From Candidatus Sysuimicrobiota bacterium (GTDB taxonomy: Bacteria > Sysuimicrobiota > Sysuimicrobiia > Sysuimicrobiales > Sysuimicrobiaceae), in assembly GCA_040289515.1 (NCBI GenBank), contig PSLI01000039.1:1-17223 (forward strand): a stretch of DNA of 17,223 nt, given 5' to 3'. Numbering within the stretch: position 1 is the first letter of the stretch; each line of letters begins with the position of its first letter. Under the pieces are notes generated by a model. The model was not told where the DNA came from. It made no database searches and was given only the letters and a program-made list of their open reading frames with translations. Both the position numbers and the translations under genes were made by a program. Positions 12,847-16,943 of the stretch are shown in pieces.

Positions 12847-14316
12847 TCAGGAGGGTACCGCACCGCGTTTGCTCCGCGCCAGCCTGTACAGGTCCAGGTA
12901 GCGGGTGGCCGCGCACTCCCACGAGAAGTCCGCGGCCATGCCCGCCCGAACCAGCCGCCCCCACACGGCCGGGTCCCGGTACGCGGCCAGGGCCCTGCTT
13001 ACGGCACCCCAAAAGGCTTCCACGGAGTACTCCTCGAACACGAACCCGTTGGCCGTGCCCCTCTCCAGGGCCTCTGGGGTGGCGTCCACCACGCTGTCGG
13101 CCAGCCCGCCGGTCCTGCGCACCACGGGGACGGTCCCGTACCGCAGGCTGTACAGCTGGTTGAGGCCGGAGGGTTCGTACCGGGAGGGCATCAAAAACGC
13201 GTCGCAGCCGGCCTCGATCCAGTGCGCGAGGCGCTCGTCGAAGCCGATACGCACCGCCACCCACCCGGGGTGCCGCCGTTCGGCCTCCCGCAGCTGTGCC
13301 TCGTAGCGGGGTTCGCCGGTCCCCAACAGCACCAGCTGGGCACCGGAGTCCGGGAACCTGTCCGCGCACGCCACCACTAGGTCCACGCCCTTCTGTTCCA
13401 CCAGCCGCGACACCATCCCGAACAGAACCACGCGGGGCTCCTCGCGCAACCCCACCTCGGGCTGCAGTGCCGCCTTGCACACCGTCTTCCCGGACAGGTC
13501 CTCCGGGCCGTATCGGGCGGGCAGGTATGGGTCGTTCCGAGGGTCCCACACCGAGTAGTCTACGCCGTTCAGGATGCCGTACAGGTCGGCGGCGCGCTGG
13601 CGCAGGAGCCCGTCTAGCCCGCAACCCAGCTCCGGGGTTTGGATCTCTTTCGAATACGTCTCGCTCACCGTGTTGAGGATGTCGGCGAACACCAACCCAC
13701 CCTTGAGCAAGTTCACCTGTCCCCAGAACTCAAGGTACTCGAGGTCGAACAAGTGATCGGGTAACCCCAATACGGAGAAGCGGTCTGCGGGGAAAAGGCC
13801 CTGGTAGGCAAGGTTGTGCACCGTCAAGACGGTGGCGATGCCGTCCCAGTCCGCACGGCCGCACGTGCGGAGGTACACGGGCACGAGCGCCGTCTGCCAG
13901 TCGTTGCAGTGCACCACGTGAGGCTTCCAGTCCGTGCGGTCCAGCCACGCCAGCACCGCGCGGCAAAAGAAGGCGAACCGTTCGAGGTTGTCCGGATAGT
14001 CCTGGCCGCCTTCCCCGTACAGCCCCGGGCGGTCGAAGTACGGGGCGTGTTCCACGAACCACACCCGGGGTGCGCCGGAGGGGTCTTCTGCCTCCCACAG
14101 GCGCGCCTCACCCCGCAGCATGCCCACGACAACCTCCACCCTGCCTGCCTCCCTCAGCGCCCACCCGCCGGCTTTGACCGCTCGGTTCAAAGGCGTGACC
14201 ACCCGCACGTCCACGCCGGCTCTGGCCAGCGCCTTGGGGAGCGCGCTGCTCACGTCCGCAAGGCCTCCGGTTTTCGAAAACGGCGCCACTTCCGAGGACG
14301 CAAACAGCACGCGCAA
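12847..14316 (-). CDS. glgA: Glycogen synthase (GT5)
   Basis: SEVAPFSKTGGLADV, HCNDWQT, TVHNLAYQG, GILNGVD, SRLVEQKG and MPSRYEPSGL.QL motifs. Probable TTG start at 14316 after GGTGAGG. Confidence 0.95.
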   Translation of the reverse strand: MRVLFASSEVAPFSKTGGLADVSSALPKALARAGVDVRVVTPLNRAVKAGGWALREAGRVEVVVGMLRGEARLWEAEDPSGAPRVWFVEHAPYFDRPGLYGEGGQDYPDNLERFAFFCRAVLAWLDRTDWKPHVVHCNDWQTALVPVYLRTCGRADWDGIATVLTVHNLAYQGLFPADRFSVLGLPDHLFDLEYLEFWGQVNLLKGGLVFADILNTVSETYSKEIQTPELGCGLDGLLRQRAADLYGILNGVDYSVWDPRNDPYLPARYGPEDLSGKTVCKAALQPEVGLREEPRVVLFGMVSRLVEQKGVDLVVACADRFPDSGAQLVLLGTGEPRYEAQLREAERRHPGWVAVRIGFDERLAHWIEAGCDAFLMPSRYEPSGLNQLYSLRYGTVPVVRRTGGLADSVVDATPEALERGTANGFVFEEYSVEAFWGAVSRALAAYRDPAVWGRLVRAGMAADFSWECAATRYLDLYRLARSKRGAVPS

Positions 14317-14357
14317 TGCCTCACCCCACCGTACACCGCCGAAAACACGAAAATAAC

Positions 14358-14386
14358 TTGACCCCGCCGCCCTCACCTGCCAGTAT
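14358..14386 (+). promoter_or_regulatory. Possible sigma70-type promoter reading toward the peptide gene
   Basis: A-rich tract (14341-14357), TTGACC, 17 nt ending in TGC, then CAGTAT (weak -10). Confidence 0.35.
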
Positions 14387-14542
14387 CGCGCCCGAAGGCG
14401 TACGCTGGCGGTGCAAGCGGTACCAGGCCTGACGAGGATCCTCGTCGGCAGCTGAGTTGTCGTGCATGGCGGCGTACAGCCGCCGCTACCAAGTATGTGC
14501 GCCGGGACTCTGTCCCGTAGACCTCTTTCCGTGGTCGCCACG

Positions 14543-14571
14543 ATCGTAGAGCAAGTTTTGTGCCGAGTCAA
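14543..14571 (-). promoter_or_regulatory. sigma70-type promoter for glgA-galT with a sigma54-like motif in its spacer
   Basis: Minus strand TTGACT-N17-TACGAT. The spacer contains CGGCAC-AAAAC-TTGCT (GG-N10-GC). Confidence 0.6.
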
Positions 14572-14650
14572 GCAACGGGAGGATTCCCGTGAACGAACGG
14601 CGCTAACTCTCGATCGGTACGAAATCTGGAAAGGAAAGGAGGGATTACAG

Positions 14651-14737
14651 ATGGGCAAGTGGGGAAAGCTCGTTCTGCTGCTCTCGACGCTGGCTTCGCT
14701 GCTGCTCTCGGCCGCGGCCAACGGCAAGTGGGGCTAG
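14651..14737 (+). CDS. 28-aa small peptide MGKWGKLVLLLSTLASLLLSAAANGKWG (putative signalling-peptide precursor)
   Basis: AAAGGAGG (14635-14642) lies 8 nt before the ATG. Basic N-terminus, hydrophobic core, AAA, short polar tail ending KWG; directly upstream of a membrane HD-GYP gene. Confidence 0.8.
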   Translation: MGKWGKLVLLLSTLASLLLSAAANGKWG

Positions 14738-14798
14738 GGCTCTGAGTCCGGGTCCAGGCTTCCGAACCCTAAACAGAGCTCGGGTTAAGCGCAGCGCC

Positions 14799-14814
14799 TG
14801 GCACGCCGATTGCT
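14799..14814 (+). promoter_or_regulatory. sigma54 (-24/-12) promoter of the HD-GYP gene
   Basis: TGGCAC-GCCGA-TTGCT matches the TGGCAC-N5-TTGCW consensus and ends 22 nt before ATG 14837. Confidence 0.7.
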
Positions 14815-14836
14815 CCCTGCTCCGGGGAGGGAGCCC

Positions 14837-16222
14837 ATGCGTGGGGTGTTGCGCTTAATCATTTCGCTTGCCGGCCTTTGCTTCGTCGGTACGCTTTTCC
14901 ACGCCCTCGCCATCTTGCGAGCGTCGCCGGTCCAGATTTCTCCCCTTGGCGCTGCTGCTTTCATGACGGCTACGTTCCTCGCCATCGTTGCGGAACTCAA
15001 GCCTACCCGCCTACCCTTTGGGACAGAAGTGTTCGAAGTGACCCTCAGTACGGCGGTGGCCCTTCCCGTTCTTATCCTCGTAGGTTGGCCTTTCGCATTT
15101 CTGCTGATGGCCTTCGCCGTGGCGGTCTCCGACATCCAGTTGGCAAAGCCTTGGTACAAAACCCTCTACAATGCAGCCAACAGTGCTCTGTCCGTGTGGA
15201 TCGCGGGCAACGTCTATGGGCTCCTGACGGGGTCTATGGGCCTCGAGTCCTTTAAGACGTCAACCCTTGCTGCCGCTGCAGCCAGCGGCCTCACCTTCAG
15301 CCTCACCAACACGCTGCTTCTGGTGCTGCCCATCGCCACTGTTCAAGGCCTACCCTACCGCACCGTTTTCCCCCCTTATTTCAAGGCGGTTGCCCCCTTT
15401 TATGGGGGCGTCACCTCCCTCTCCGTGGCCGTTGCAGTCTTGTGGCAGCTAAATCCGTTCAGCGTCGTCCTCCTCTTGCCCGCCCTGTTGACGACGCGCC
15501 TCGCGTACCACCACTACGTTCGCCTCCGCCTGGAAACCGACAACTTCGTCGAATCCCTGGCCGACGCCGTTGACCTCCGAGACCCCTACACAGCCGGCCA
15601 TTCGGTCCGCGTAGCCGAACTGGCCCACGCCCTGGGCAAACGGCTAGGGCGCGCCGGAGATGAGTTGTGGGCGCTGCGCTCCATCGCGCGGGTCCACGAT
15701 GTGGGAAAGCTCACCGTGCCCGACGCTGTCCTGCTCAAGGCCGGCGTTCTGACGCCCGAGGAGTTCTCACAGATGAAAGGACACGTGGAGGCCGGGGTGC
15801 GCATCCTGCAGCACATCAGCCTGCACCGGAGCGCCCTGGACATCCTGGCCCAGCACCACGAACGCTTGGACGGCTCCGGCTACCCCCACGGCCTGCGGGG
15901 CGATGAGATCATCTTCCCCGCCCGCATTTTAGCCGTGGCGGATGCTTACGACGCCATGACCACCGACCGCCCCTACCGGCCCGCCAAGACCCCGGAGGAG
16001 GCCGTGCGGGAACTCTACCGGGTCGCGGGAAAGCAGTACGATCTGAGTGTGGTTCGCGCCCTGGAGGACGAGCTGCTGGCCAGGGGCGTGTTGAAGACGC
16101 CCGTGGTTCCCGCGGCCCTGCAGGCCGCCGCCCGCGCCGAGCCGGAACAGGAACCGGATGCTGCTGGTACCGCTCGCGTTGTCCATTTTCCTCGGGTGGG
16201 CTCGGGGCGGAAGCCTCCGTAA
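14837..16222 (+). CDS. Membrane-anchored HD-GYP c-di-GMP phosphodiesterase with a multi-TM N-terminal sensor (possibly MASE9-like)
   Basis: ~225-aa hydrophobic N-terminus (about 7 TM; KTLYNAA motif), then RDPYTAGHS.RV, HDVGK, HHERLDGSGYP and AVADAYDAMTTDRPYR. GGAGG RBS before ATG 14837. Confidence 0.92.
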   Translation: MRGVLRLIISLAGLCFVGTLFHALAILRASPVQISPLGAAAFMTATFLAIVAELKPTRLPFGTEVFEVTLSTAVALPVLILVGWPFAFLLMAFAVAVSDIQLAKPWYKTLYNAANSALSVWIAGNVYGLLTGSMGLESFKTSTLAAAAASGLTFSLTNTLLLVLPIATVQGLPYRTVFPPYFKAVAPFYGGVTSLSVAVAVLWQLNPFSVVLLLPALLTTRLAYHHYVRLRLETDNFVESLADAVDLRDPYTAGHSVRVAELAHALGKRLGRAGDELWALRSIARVHDVGKLTVPDAVLLKAGVLTPEEFSQMKGHVEAGVRILQHISLHRSALDILAQHHERLDGSGYPHGLRGDEIIFPARILAVADAYDAMTTDRPYRPAKTPEEAVRELYRVAGKQYDLSVVRALEDELLARGVLKTPVVPAALQAAARAEPEQEPDAAGTARVVHFPRVGSGRKPP

Positions 16223-16943
16223 CCTCCTGGCCGCGGACGTGCGCCACCCGTGGATCCCCCTGGCGGCCCTGGGCCTGCAGCTGGCCGTCTTCGAGCCGAC
16301 CGGGCCCCTGCCCCTGCTGAGGGGCCAGCAACTGGCCGTGCACGTGGCCTCCTACGTTCTGCTGGGCTGGTTTTTGTGGTTCAACCGCCACCTGCCCGGG
16401 ATGTGGCTGGTGGCCCTGGGCTTCGCCTCCAACGCTGCCGCCATCGTGGCCAACGGAGGCCTCATGCCCGCCTCGGAAGAGGCTCTGCGCAAGGCCGGCC
16501 GGTGGGCGCTGCTGCAGGCGGCCGGGACCTACAACAACTCCACGGTGATCGGCCCCCACACCAGGCTGTGGTTCCTGGGGGACGTCTTTGCGCTTCCCGA
16601 GGGCGTCCCGCTGGCCAACGTGTTCAGCCTGGGGGATGTGTTCCTGGCCCTGGGCGCTCTGATCCTGGTGCCGGCTGCCATGGGTGCGCGCCCTGTGGGC
16701 CGCAGGGCCGTCGTCGCGGGTGCGGTCGCCGCCGCCCTGCTCGTGGGCTTCCTTCTTGCCAACCTCCAGGTCCCCGAGGCCCTCCGCCGAACCGGATTCC
16801 GTCCGCACGGGGCTGGGTCCATCCCGAAAGTTCAACGGGCCAGCACCAGCACCAGGTCGTTGACGTTGGTCCCCGTGGGCCCCGTGCGCACCAGGCCGCC
16901 TGCGGCCTGGAAGAAGGCGTACGAGTCGTTCGCGGCCAGGTAA
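16158..16943 (+). CDS. DUF5317-like membrane protein
   Basis: RGG.L.NL, WFN..LPG, G..SN...I.ANGG.MP, T.L.FLGDV and VFSLGDVFL motifs recognised as DUF5317. Overlaps the HD-GYP 3' end by 65 nt. Confidence 0.8.
   Translation: MLLVPLALSIFLGWARGGSLRNLLAADVRHPWIPLAALGLQLAVFEPTGPLPLLRGQQLAVHVASYVLLGWFLWFNRHLPGMWLVALGFASNAAAIVANGGLMPASEEALRKAGRWALLQAAGTYNNSTVIGPHTRLWFLGDVFALPEGVPLANVFSLGDVFLALGALILVPAAMGARPVGRRAVVAGAVAAALLVGFLLANLQVPEALRRTGFRPHGAGSIPKVQRASTSTRSLTLVPVGPVRTRPPAAWKKAYESFAAR

Follow-up and report, generated by a model that had tools for sequence, protein, structure and literature searches.

A conserved 28-residue membrane micro-protein encoded with DUF5317 and HD-GYP genes in Candidatus Sysuimicrobiota: a possible AgrD-like pro-peptide

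An AgrD pro-peptide consists of a basic N-end and a hydrophobic helix, after which come two small residues and a variable tail, mostly with an aromatic residue. The same plan is found in a micro-protein of 28 residues encoded in the DNA analysed here, a stretch of 17,223 nucleotides from Candidatus Sysuimicrobiota bacterium (NCBI GenBank assembly GCA_040289515.1, contig PSLI01000039.1, forward strand; hereafter the window), in which its gene is followed by those of a membrane HD-GYP phosphodiesterase of cyclic di-GMP (c-di-GMP) and of a membrane protein of the DUF5317 family. In loci of Clostridium and Clostridiales, AgrD is itself part of an operon that also encodes DUF5317 and a membrane GGDEF/HD-GYP enzyme. 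The two systems differ in that the micro-protein has neither a ring-forming Cys or Ser nor an acidic tail, that there is no AgrC/AgrA pair, and that the output would be a c-di-GMP enzyme. The reading that we favour, with a probability of roughly 0.4, is that the micro-protein is an AgrD-like pro-peptide which needs no AgrB and is handled by DUF5317 at the outer face of the membrane.

Other described systems resemble parts of this arrangement. In the RRNPP and SHP-Rgg pheromone systems, the mature peptide consists of the C-terminal few residues of a hydrophobic precursor of 20-50 residues. The micro-protein shares this architecture, its N-part being basic and hydrophobic and its C-terminal tail short, and in Anaerolineae a tetratricopeptide repeat (TPR) regulator is encoded beside the peptide gene, a layout reminiscent of RRNPP systems, in which the genes of receptor and peptide form pairs. 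In contrast, the window has no TPR receptor, and its candidate receptor is a membrane domain. Small proteins of one helix that are encoded in or beside the operon of their partner, such as MgrB (with PhoQ), AcrZ (with AcrB), KdpF and CydX, are like the micro-protein in size and in their single helix. They have no sequence relation to it, and none of them is known to occur with DUF5317 or with HD-GYP enzymes.

MASE9-HD-GYP phosphodiesterases such as T. maritima TM1467 and S. venezuelae HdgA have a MASE9 domain that is proposed to bind a ligand within the membrane; the passages searched of that report (Galperin and Chou, bioRxiv 10.1101/2021.11.05.467447) name no ligand and make no mention of a small protein. 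The window's enzyme follows the same plan, a multi-pass membrane domain joined to HD-GYP, and differs in that its N-terminal domain does not reach the Pfam MASE9 model directly. C. difficile, too, has small membrane-associated proteins whose genes directly follow c-di-GMP class I riboswitches, as that of the micro-protein does in some relatives. According to the passages searched, these stand-alone proteins of the CD1980.2 family have 58 residues, are modelled as four helices, act on sporulation and have reported homologs only in C. difficile (Badilla Lobo et al. 2026, PMC13724677); as described there they form another family and do not belong to a DUF5317/HD-GYP operon. Membrane-sensor HD-GYP enzymes are common and the MASE9 type lacks a known input. 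The micro-protein may be the missing peptide input, and its co-inheritance gives both the MASE9-type enzyme and DUF5317 a concrete, testable partner.

The micro-protein gene and its module

A micro-protein gene had been proposed in an earlier note made from the letters of the window alone, which described the product as almost entirely hydrophobic helix with a short tail and neither Cys nor lipobox. Both its position and its description held on translation: the frame runs from ATG 14651-14653 to TAG 14735-14737 and gives 28 residues with no Cys (Table 1). When 41 relatives were searched with the DNA, four members of the genus matched, the match being centred on this open reading frame (ORF), and a peptide profile found one intact copy in 16 of the 94 genomes of the phylum (Ca. 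Sysuimicrobiota), in four of its seven families. Disruption of the frame in close relatives, which the earlier note had named as a refuting outcome, was not seen, since the frame is intact in all six genus genomes that hold the locus. Among these six sequences the ratio of nonsynonymous to synonymous substitution rates (dN/dS), likewise proposed as a check, is 0.12-0.23 in all 15 pairs. Their variable columns number 7, 5 and 18 at codon positions 1, 2 and 3 (18 of 30 at third positions), and the stop codon alternates between TAG and TAA within the genus. A ribosome site of the GGAGG type precedes the start in the copies of all relatives as well. Judged by these substitution patterns, purifying selection is acting on the amino-acid sequence of the micro-protein.

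When a 40-residue in-frame stretch was used as query, eight unnamed metagenome clusters of 28 residues matched. A profile search of 1.84 billion representatives returned 17 matches, of which 16 are stand-alone peptides ending in ..GA-x-x-KW-x and the remaining one is a false match to a repetitive protein of 1825 residues; no fusion of the micro-protein to a larger protein was found among the 17. Searched against Pfam and NCBIfam, the phylum's peptides had no match at E <= 10, save for a chance-level one to DUF3042 (E 0.26). Routine annotation thus misses or mis-sizes a gene family that is found in several phyla. That gene callers would miss the gene or extend it to 91 residues had been foreseen, and this proved right in part: an in-frame extension of 91 residues from GTG 14462 is present as an ORF and the source genome's gene is indeed mis-sized in the protein collection, but it is called there as a 59-residue extension, and the genes of relatives are called at 28 residues.

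We regard it as almost certain that the micro-protein gene is real and part of a three-part module. In the window, a one-helix ORF lies on the same strand as DUF5317 and within about 2 kb upstream of it, a membrane HD-GYP gene is adjacent, and the helix carries a small pair at its outer end, followed by a short tail. A search with PF17248 found DUF5317 in 38 of the 94 phylum genomes, and outside family f4 the 16 DUF5317-positive genomes are exactly the 16 that carry the peptide. The functional link to the HD-GYP neighbour that the earlier note had supposed is borne out by the presence of the cassette in these 16 genomes and by its recurrence in other phyla. In family f1 the genes are ordered peptide, HD-GYP, DUF5317, and in families f2, f5 and f7 peptide, DUF5317, HD-GYP; genus g2 has the gene order of the window, with DUF5317 fused to a SPOR domain. 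In the window, DUF5317 starts 65 nt before the HD-GYP stop and in a different frame (overlap 16158-16222), which suggests that its translation is coupled to that of the HD-GYP gene.

The N-terminal 240 residues of the window's enzyme have no match to Pfam MASE9 (PF20972) at E <= 10. The cut-off of that model (24.3 bits) is passed by orthologs in two genomes of the phylum (G039, 27.2 bits; G052, 24.5 bits), and the N-terminal domain of the window's enzyme is 28% identical to that of G039 (E 3e-20), so that it would be MASE9-like by transitive homology only.

Genome G009, which is 100% complete and belongs to another genus of the same family, has kept the glgA-HD-GYP synteny together with a full-length HD-GYP ortholog (53% identical), and the PF17248 search showed DUF5317 to be absent from it. 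Its peptide site holds an MNKWG-stop mini-ORF and 2.6 tandem repeats of 96 nt (98% match; L174 3045-3290), each unit of which has a ribosome site and a 13-codon ORF, MNKWGRTKCERWA, without a helix. This genome has lost the helix and DUF5317 together and kept the enzyme, which suggests that the peptide is tied first to DUF5317 and weakens an earlier proposal that the uncleaved helix regulates the HD-GYP sensor directly. Genomes G002 and G003 (83% and 72% complete) have only HD-GYP-domain matches, with no ortholog of the cassette enzyme, and are uninformative either way. All our results agree on a module linked to c-di-GMP in which the peptide serves DUF5317 as a dedicated partner.

Relatives in other phyla and the likeness to AgrD

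A five-sequence DUF5317 alignment was used to obtain 77 DUF5317 loci, five of which belong to the window's phylum. Most of the others come from Chloroflexota, Anaerolineae, Chloroflexia and Limnocylindria and a few from Bacillota/Clostridium and Dormiibacterota, and one metagenome-assembled genome (MAG) each is labelled Deinococcus, Desulfovibrio and Acidobacteriaceae. The phylum's peptide profile was run against 12,472 ORF tails from both strands of the 77 loci, and all 44 matches at E <= 1 lay on the strand of DUF5317. Three profile iterations (E <= 0.01) gave 68 matches on that strand and one on the other, in 60 of the 77 loci. An HD-GYP gene lies within 3.5 kb in 39 of these 60, and five loci carry tandem copies of the micro-protein. 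Across the phyla a common plan emerges, consisting of a basic N-end, a helix, the pair G-A and a tail of 3-13 residues that varies by lineage and mostly includes Trp, Phe or Tyr; when 29 sequences are aligned, all have the Ala of G-A and at least 90% have the Gly. At four loci from Chloroflexia MAGs the micro-protein appears split over two frames, perhaps by assembly indels or by real decay.

The Anaerolineae loci that lack HD-GYP have a regulator of 520-1080 residues just upstream, with BTAD in all eight ORFs tested and TPR in seven of the eight. In loci of Anaerolineae and other Chloroflexota, 100-250 nt separate the end of such TPR and BTAD regulators from the genes that follow, one or two micro-protein genes in tandem and DUF5317, with no HD-GYP gene close by.

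In six loci of Clostridium and Clostridiales, the iterated profile matched a peptide of 41-45 residues that ends in ..SAC-x-W..YQPEEP..LR(D/E)E. All six of these peptides match the AgrD model TIGR04223 (best E 7.6e-14), and in the three clostridial loci scanned with Pfam the operon comprises, in order, DUF5317, a 155-residue protein that falls into no family, AgrB, AgrD and a membrane GGDEF/HD-GYP enzyme. In this last protein the N-terminal domain has a weak match, below the cut-off, to a PilS-like 6TM domain (E 0.0032). Alignment of 29 Cys-less micro-proteins with the six AgrD peptides by hhalign gave a probability of 91.6% and a score of 30.2 over 33 columns, and placed G-A over the S-A that directly precedes the AgrD Cys. 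Scores of 200 column shuffles of the AgrD alignment had a mean of 7.2 and a maximum of 12.2, the reversed alignment scored 7.9, and 100 shuffles of the leader interior alone reached at most 22.0; none of the 300 shuffles in total attained 30.2. By this comparison, which was not blind, the micro-protein has an N-terminal membrane-targeting leader helix like that of AgrD. A ring former for a thiolactone or lactone and an acidic C-terminal tail are absent from it: there is no Cys, the last Ser (S20) lies inside the helix, and the peptide ends five residues after A23.

C. perfringens has an operon CPE1563-CPE1562-agrB-agrD (Vidal et al. 2009, PMC2706048), and its order in the passages of that paper searched, two unnamed genes followed by agrB and agrD, fits the clostridial loci described here. 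This suggests that the two unnamed genes include a DUF5317 protein, which we infer to be CPE1563. The gene content of the clostridial loci further suggests that orphan agrBD loci are wired to a c-di-GMP enzyme; no operon link between agrBD and c-di-GMP or GGDEF in Clostridium was found in the literature searched by titles and abstract openings. If the likeness to AgrD is real, peptide quorum sensing and c-di-GMP signalling would be joined, and the two genes without a name in the clostridial agr operon would gain a suggested role.

DUF5317 and the fate of the peptide

The micro-protein MGKWGKLVLLLSTLASLLLSAAANGKWG begins with a basic, Trp-containing N-end, continues with a hydrophobic helix of 17 residues (residues 7-23; mean Kyte-Doolittle hydropathy 2.28) and ends with the small pair A22-A23 and the tail NGKWG. 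Where the window has A22-A23, most relatives have G-A, and G006 also has Ala for Gly. In near-identical copies position 24 is hypervariable (N, F, S, G, T, Q, P or H) and the following GKW is invariant. Because K3 and K6 stand before the helix and only K26 after it, the N-end should, by the positive-inside rule, lie inside and the C-terminal tail outside; the KW ends are typical membrane-interface anchors.

An AlphaFold2 model of DUF5317, built from 22 sequences, is confident, with a predicted local distance difference test score (pLDDT) of 91.6, and has five long helices and a structured loop (residues 99-157). Ten residues are invariant in 30 DUF5317 sequences from several phyla (N93, N100, G102, M104, P105, L142, D144, S159, G161 and D162, in G010 numbering), and this invariant polar cluster makes the protein look enzyme-like. 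In the SPOR fusions the added domain is C-terminal and follows a sixth hydrophobic segment. Since SPOR domains act outside the cell, we infer that the loop and most of the invariant residues are at the outer face, on the same side as G-A and the tail of the peptide. The DUF5317 profile matched nothing among the PDB chains below E 2.7, the best Foldseek hit of the model in the PDB had E 3.1, VIA-align against 48,161 chains gave a best Z of 6.0 with generic helices, and the ESM Atlas held no usable match, none of which shows that the fold is new. A GxGD-type aspartyl protease was considered, found no support in the fold and profile searches and is not claimed. No mention of DUF5317 or PF17248 was found in the literature searched.

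Complex prediction of DUF5317 with the 32-residue G010 peptide scored 0.54 (runs 0.54, 0.52 and 0.75), as against 0.02 for the best of three controls; the calibration mark is reached by 116 of 157 solved complexes and two of 215 mismatched pairs, but passes at 0.60 or under came from only 18 of the 157 solved complexes and from both passing mismatches. Contacts agree between the runs in at least 82%, and the pLDDT of the partner is at least 70. These models weakly suggest that the peptide docks on DUF5317.

We propose the following topology, DUF5317 binding, cleavage, peptide release and sensing. The peptide would insert with its basic N-end (K3, K6) inside and its C-end outside, and its helix would dock on DUF5317, whose invariant Asn/Asp/Ser cluster would sit at the same outer face. 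DUF5317, which might hypothetically be a peptidase, would cut at or next to the small pair (A22-A23; G-A in most relatives) and free the linear tail NGKWG or GKWG. The release of such a short C-terminal peptide, which the earlier note had imagined, may occur, and the likeness to AgrD supports it indirectly. The tail would then be sensed by the MASE9-like domain of the adjacent HD-GYP enzyme, altering c-di-GMP breakdown; the enzyme gene would be under its own sigma-54-type promoter in this genus, and in relatives the whole operon would be behind a c-di-GMP riboswitch. We favour a pro-peptide for its likeness to AgrD, for the company of agrBD in some loci and of TPR regulators in others, for the tandem copies, for a conserved G-A that precedes a variable tail and for the invariant, enzyme-like cluster of DUF5317. 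In its fullest form, which we consider rather unlikely, the proposal makes the micro-protein a Cys-less, AgrB-independent relative of AgrD, DUF5317 a new membrane peptidase or peptide handler that acts on AgrD in Clostridium, and NGKWG a linear pentapeptide pheromone with the MASE9-like domain as its receptor. If true, c-di-GMP breakdown would be coupled directly to cell density in a candidate phylum and many Chloroflexota, and the long-unassigned "hypothetical" gene in the agr operon of Clostridium would be that of DUF5317.

The cut might instead be made by signal peptidase I. The micro-protein would then be an ordinary Sec signal peptide, cleaved after A-A-A to release (A)NGKWG, with DUF5317 taking no part in the processing. 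The window's copy does have a Lys-bearing n-region, a hydrophobic core and A21-A22-A23 followed by N24, that is, small residues at -3 and -1 (A21, A23) and no Pro at +1, and pheromones of the Phr, PapR and AimP type share this plan of n-region, core and cleavage site. Proline at +1 blocks signal peptidase I, and it occupies this position in the close metagenome variant P0005 and in most Chloroflexota relatives ("GAP"), which makes cleavage by the general enzyme at A-A-A, as earlier suggested, doubtful; several relatives also have Ile at -3 (AIGA, AIAA), and the strict coupling to DUF5317 would be left unexplained. We consider this alternative improbable. A lipoprotein lipobox with Cys at +1 is absent from MGKWGKLVLLLSTLASLLLSAAANGKWG, which has no Cys.

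Several points weigh against a pro-peptide handled by DUF5317. The structure and profile searches recognised no protease fold or motif in DUF5317. The decoys in the complex prediction were not membrane helices, so that a generic helix-packing artefact may underlie the score. The AgrD peptides were first found by the iterated micro-protein profile, which is why the hhalign comparison was not blind, and hydrophobic helices align easily. None of the 29 micro-proteins, the window's included, matches TIGR04223 at E <= 1, and by sequence the micro-protein fails every defining feature of AgrD except the likeness of the leader. AgrB (PF04647) has no match in genome G000 (96.7% complete) or among the cassette genes. 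Seventeen of the 77 DUF5317 loci have no peptide match. In family f4, DUF5317 is present in 22 of 23 genomes with no such peptide, and no cassette-type HD-GYP lies within 1.5 kb in the 15 DUF5317 loci examined, which indicates that DUF5317 can work without the peptide. The joint loss of helix and DUF5317 is seen in a single lineage, that of G009. Finally, 22 of the 28 positions are invariant within the genus, and Lys and Trp flank the helix on both sides; both features suit a stable anchor in the membrane no less than a leader that is discarded.

Such an anchor could be an uncleaved one-helix membrane subunit of DUF5317, perhaps also of the MASE9-like domain, that tunes or stabilises a complex controlling the HD-GYP enzyme, in the manner of MgrB, AcrZ, KdpF or CydX. 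We hold this to be nearly as likely as the pro-peptide. The length and hydropathy of the helix, with Lys and Trp at both flanks, are classic for interface anchoring, and the helix is nearly invariant in the genus with a tail of only 4-5 residues after the small pair. The cassette has no exporter or known peptidase; Pro after G-A, as found in many relatives, can simply cap the helix; and all 16 library relatives are stand-alone peptides. The predicted docking, at its score of 0.54, and the combined loss in G009 would suit such a subunit too. It leaves unexplained why AgrD, which is processed and released (agrBD), takes the same DUF5317 operon slot in Clostridium, why TPR regulators occur in Anaerolineae and copies stand in tandem, and why the tail varies by lineage with G-A as the only near-universal feature.

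A further observation concerns DUF5317 in family f4. In the 12 loci of this family with upstream frames read, DUF5317 is preceded by a conserved, zinc-ribbon-like ORF of about 85 residues in which CxxC pairs occur twice (MRCPxCG...YYCxACG). The start of DUF5317 itself seems to be a non-canonical codon.

DNA repeats, short upstream frames and regulatory elements

Table 1. Features of the window at and around the micro-protein gene
Feature	Position	Strand	Remarks
Upstream mini-ORF	14589..14606	+	five codons, degenerate (GTG AAC GAA CGG CGC TAA; MNERR-stop); own GGGAGG at 14577-14582
Sigma-54-type promoter motif CGGCACAAAACTTGCT	14550..14565	-	points away from the peptide gene, towards glgA; motif match only
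Shine-Dalgarno GGAGGG	14638..14643	+	8 nt before the micro-protein ATG
Micro-protein gene	14651..14737	+	28 codons and TAG; product MGKWGKLVLLLSTLASLLLSAAANGKWG
GKWG-coding repeat GGCAAGTGGGG	14654-14664 and 14723-14733		exact, 11 nt
LLLS-coding repeat CTGCTGCTCTCG	14675-14686 and 14699-14710		exact, 12 nt
Sigma-54-type promoter motif TGGCACGCCGATTGCT	14799..14814	+	between the micro-protein and HD-GYP genes; motif match only
Membrane HD-GYP c-di-GMP phosphodiesterase gene	14837..16222	+	Pfam HD_5 1.2e-37; multi-pass N-terminal domain of about 240 residues
DUF5317 membrane protein gene	16158..16943	+	Pfam PF17248 2.1e-34

The internal symmetry of the gene had been noticed before, both in the protein and in the DNA. 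A search for direct repeats in 14300-14900 found exactly two pairs, both exact and both where they had been reported. In 5000 back-translations of the peptide with the window's own codon usage, the GKWG sites were identical over 11 nt in 26%, so that the amino acids alone account for this repeat, and the LLLS sites were identical over 12 nt in 1.9%. The LLLS repeat is not kept: one of the 15 other genomes (G006) has an 11-nt repeat, CGCTGCTGCTG, and the rest have none. Because of the back-translations and of this loss in relatives, we consider the DNA repeats to be by-products of the amino-acid sequence and codon bias, with no role of their own. What is conserved is the symmetry of the protein, as [NG]KWG...GKW[GA] in nine genomes of family f1 and as MRW[KR]...GKWx in the other seven. 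The repeats were also considered as enhancer-binding sites for the sigma-54 promoters, an idea that was dropped because the coding of KWG explains the repeat and the third positions of its Gly codons vary freely among relatives.

The upstream mini-ORF reads (G/A)TG AAC AAG TGG GGN stop, or MNKWG, in five genomes (G001, G004, G005, G007 and G009). At these loci it copies the first five codons of the micro-protein gene. The window's version is degenerate in sequence, yet its start, length and stop are retained.

The plus-strand sigma-54-type motif, TGGCAC-N5-TTGCT, stands 47-70 nt after the peptide stop and before the enzyme gene in all six genomes of the window's genus, g1. The motif on the glgA side, 86-109 nt upstream, is found in six of six genomes of g1, in three of three of genus g2 and in G009. 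Genus g2 has this motif only, and G009 has both in the intergenic region. The rpoN gene is present in G000; no enhancer-binding protein or binding site for one was identified for the motifs, and no promoter was found for the micro-protein gene itself.

In the window no Rfam family reaches its gathering score, and in 14250-14900 the only matches at E <= 5 are two chance-level viral motifs; upstream of the window's peptide gene there is no c-di-GMP riboswitch (RF01051, RF03167 or RF01786) at gathering score or at E <= 5. Four of 15 phylum loci (G017, G029, G050 and G052) carry c-di-GMP-I aptamers on the strand of the peptide gene, 74-118 nt ahead of it. In other phyla 13 of 20 loci have an aptamer before the peptide gene, which is c-di-GMP-II in 12 and c-di-GMP-I-GGC in one. 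Aptamers of class I and class II before the same gene mean that two unrelated riboswitch classes have been recruited to it.

In many lineages the ORF has a riboswitch or promoter on one side and the enzyme gene on the other. This would also suit a regulatory leader ORF whose translation, together with that of the MNKWG mini-ORF, controls the enzyme gene downstream or the riboswitch platform; the peptide as such would have no job. MNKWG mini-ORFs with ribosome sites are kept or multiplied in the five genomes named above, as such a role would allow. The whole amino-acid sequence is under purifying selection, however, and the plan of helix, G-A and tail persists between phyla in which the DNA has little identity; the ORF co-occurs with DUF5317 and not merely with a downstream gene. 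In this genus, moreover, a sigma-54-type promoter stands between the ORF and the enzyme gene, which would uncouple the two. We therefore judge a leader ORF to be very improbable.

A type I toxin, a small membrane-damaging peptide held in check by an antisense RNA, would typically have the size and hydrophobicity of the micro-protein. Against it stand the single copy per genome and the fixed operon slot across the phylum and beyond, a distribution that is neither patchy nor multi-copy. Where riboswitches precede the gene, it occupies the sense strand behind them; no promoter-like site faces into the ORF, and the single such site of the other strand is directed away from the gene. This makes a toxin extremely unlikely.

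Between the minus-strand sigma-54 motif and glgA, which starts at about 14316, lies a hairpin-rich region of some 200 nt (14340-14549). The genus conserves it, some of the changes being compensatory, and it has no Rfam match. The energy of its consensus fold is -36.3 kcal/mol for the minus strand (eight covarying pairs) and -27.2 kcal/mol for the plus strand (nine covarying pairs). The region could be a structured leader of glgA or a sigma-54-dependent small RNA that ends at a T-run before a conserved TGTCAAG.

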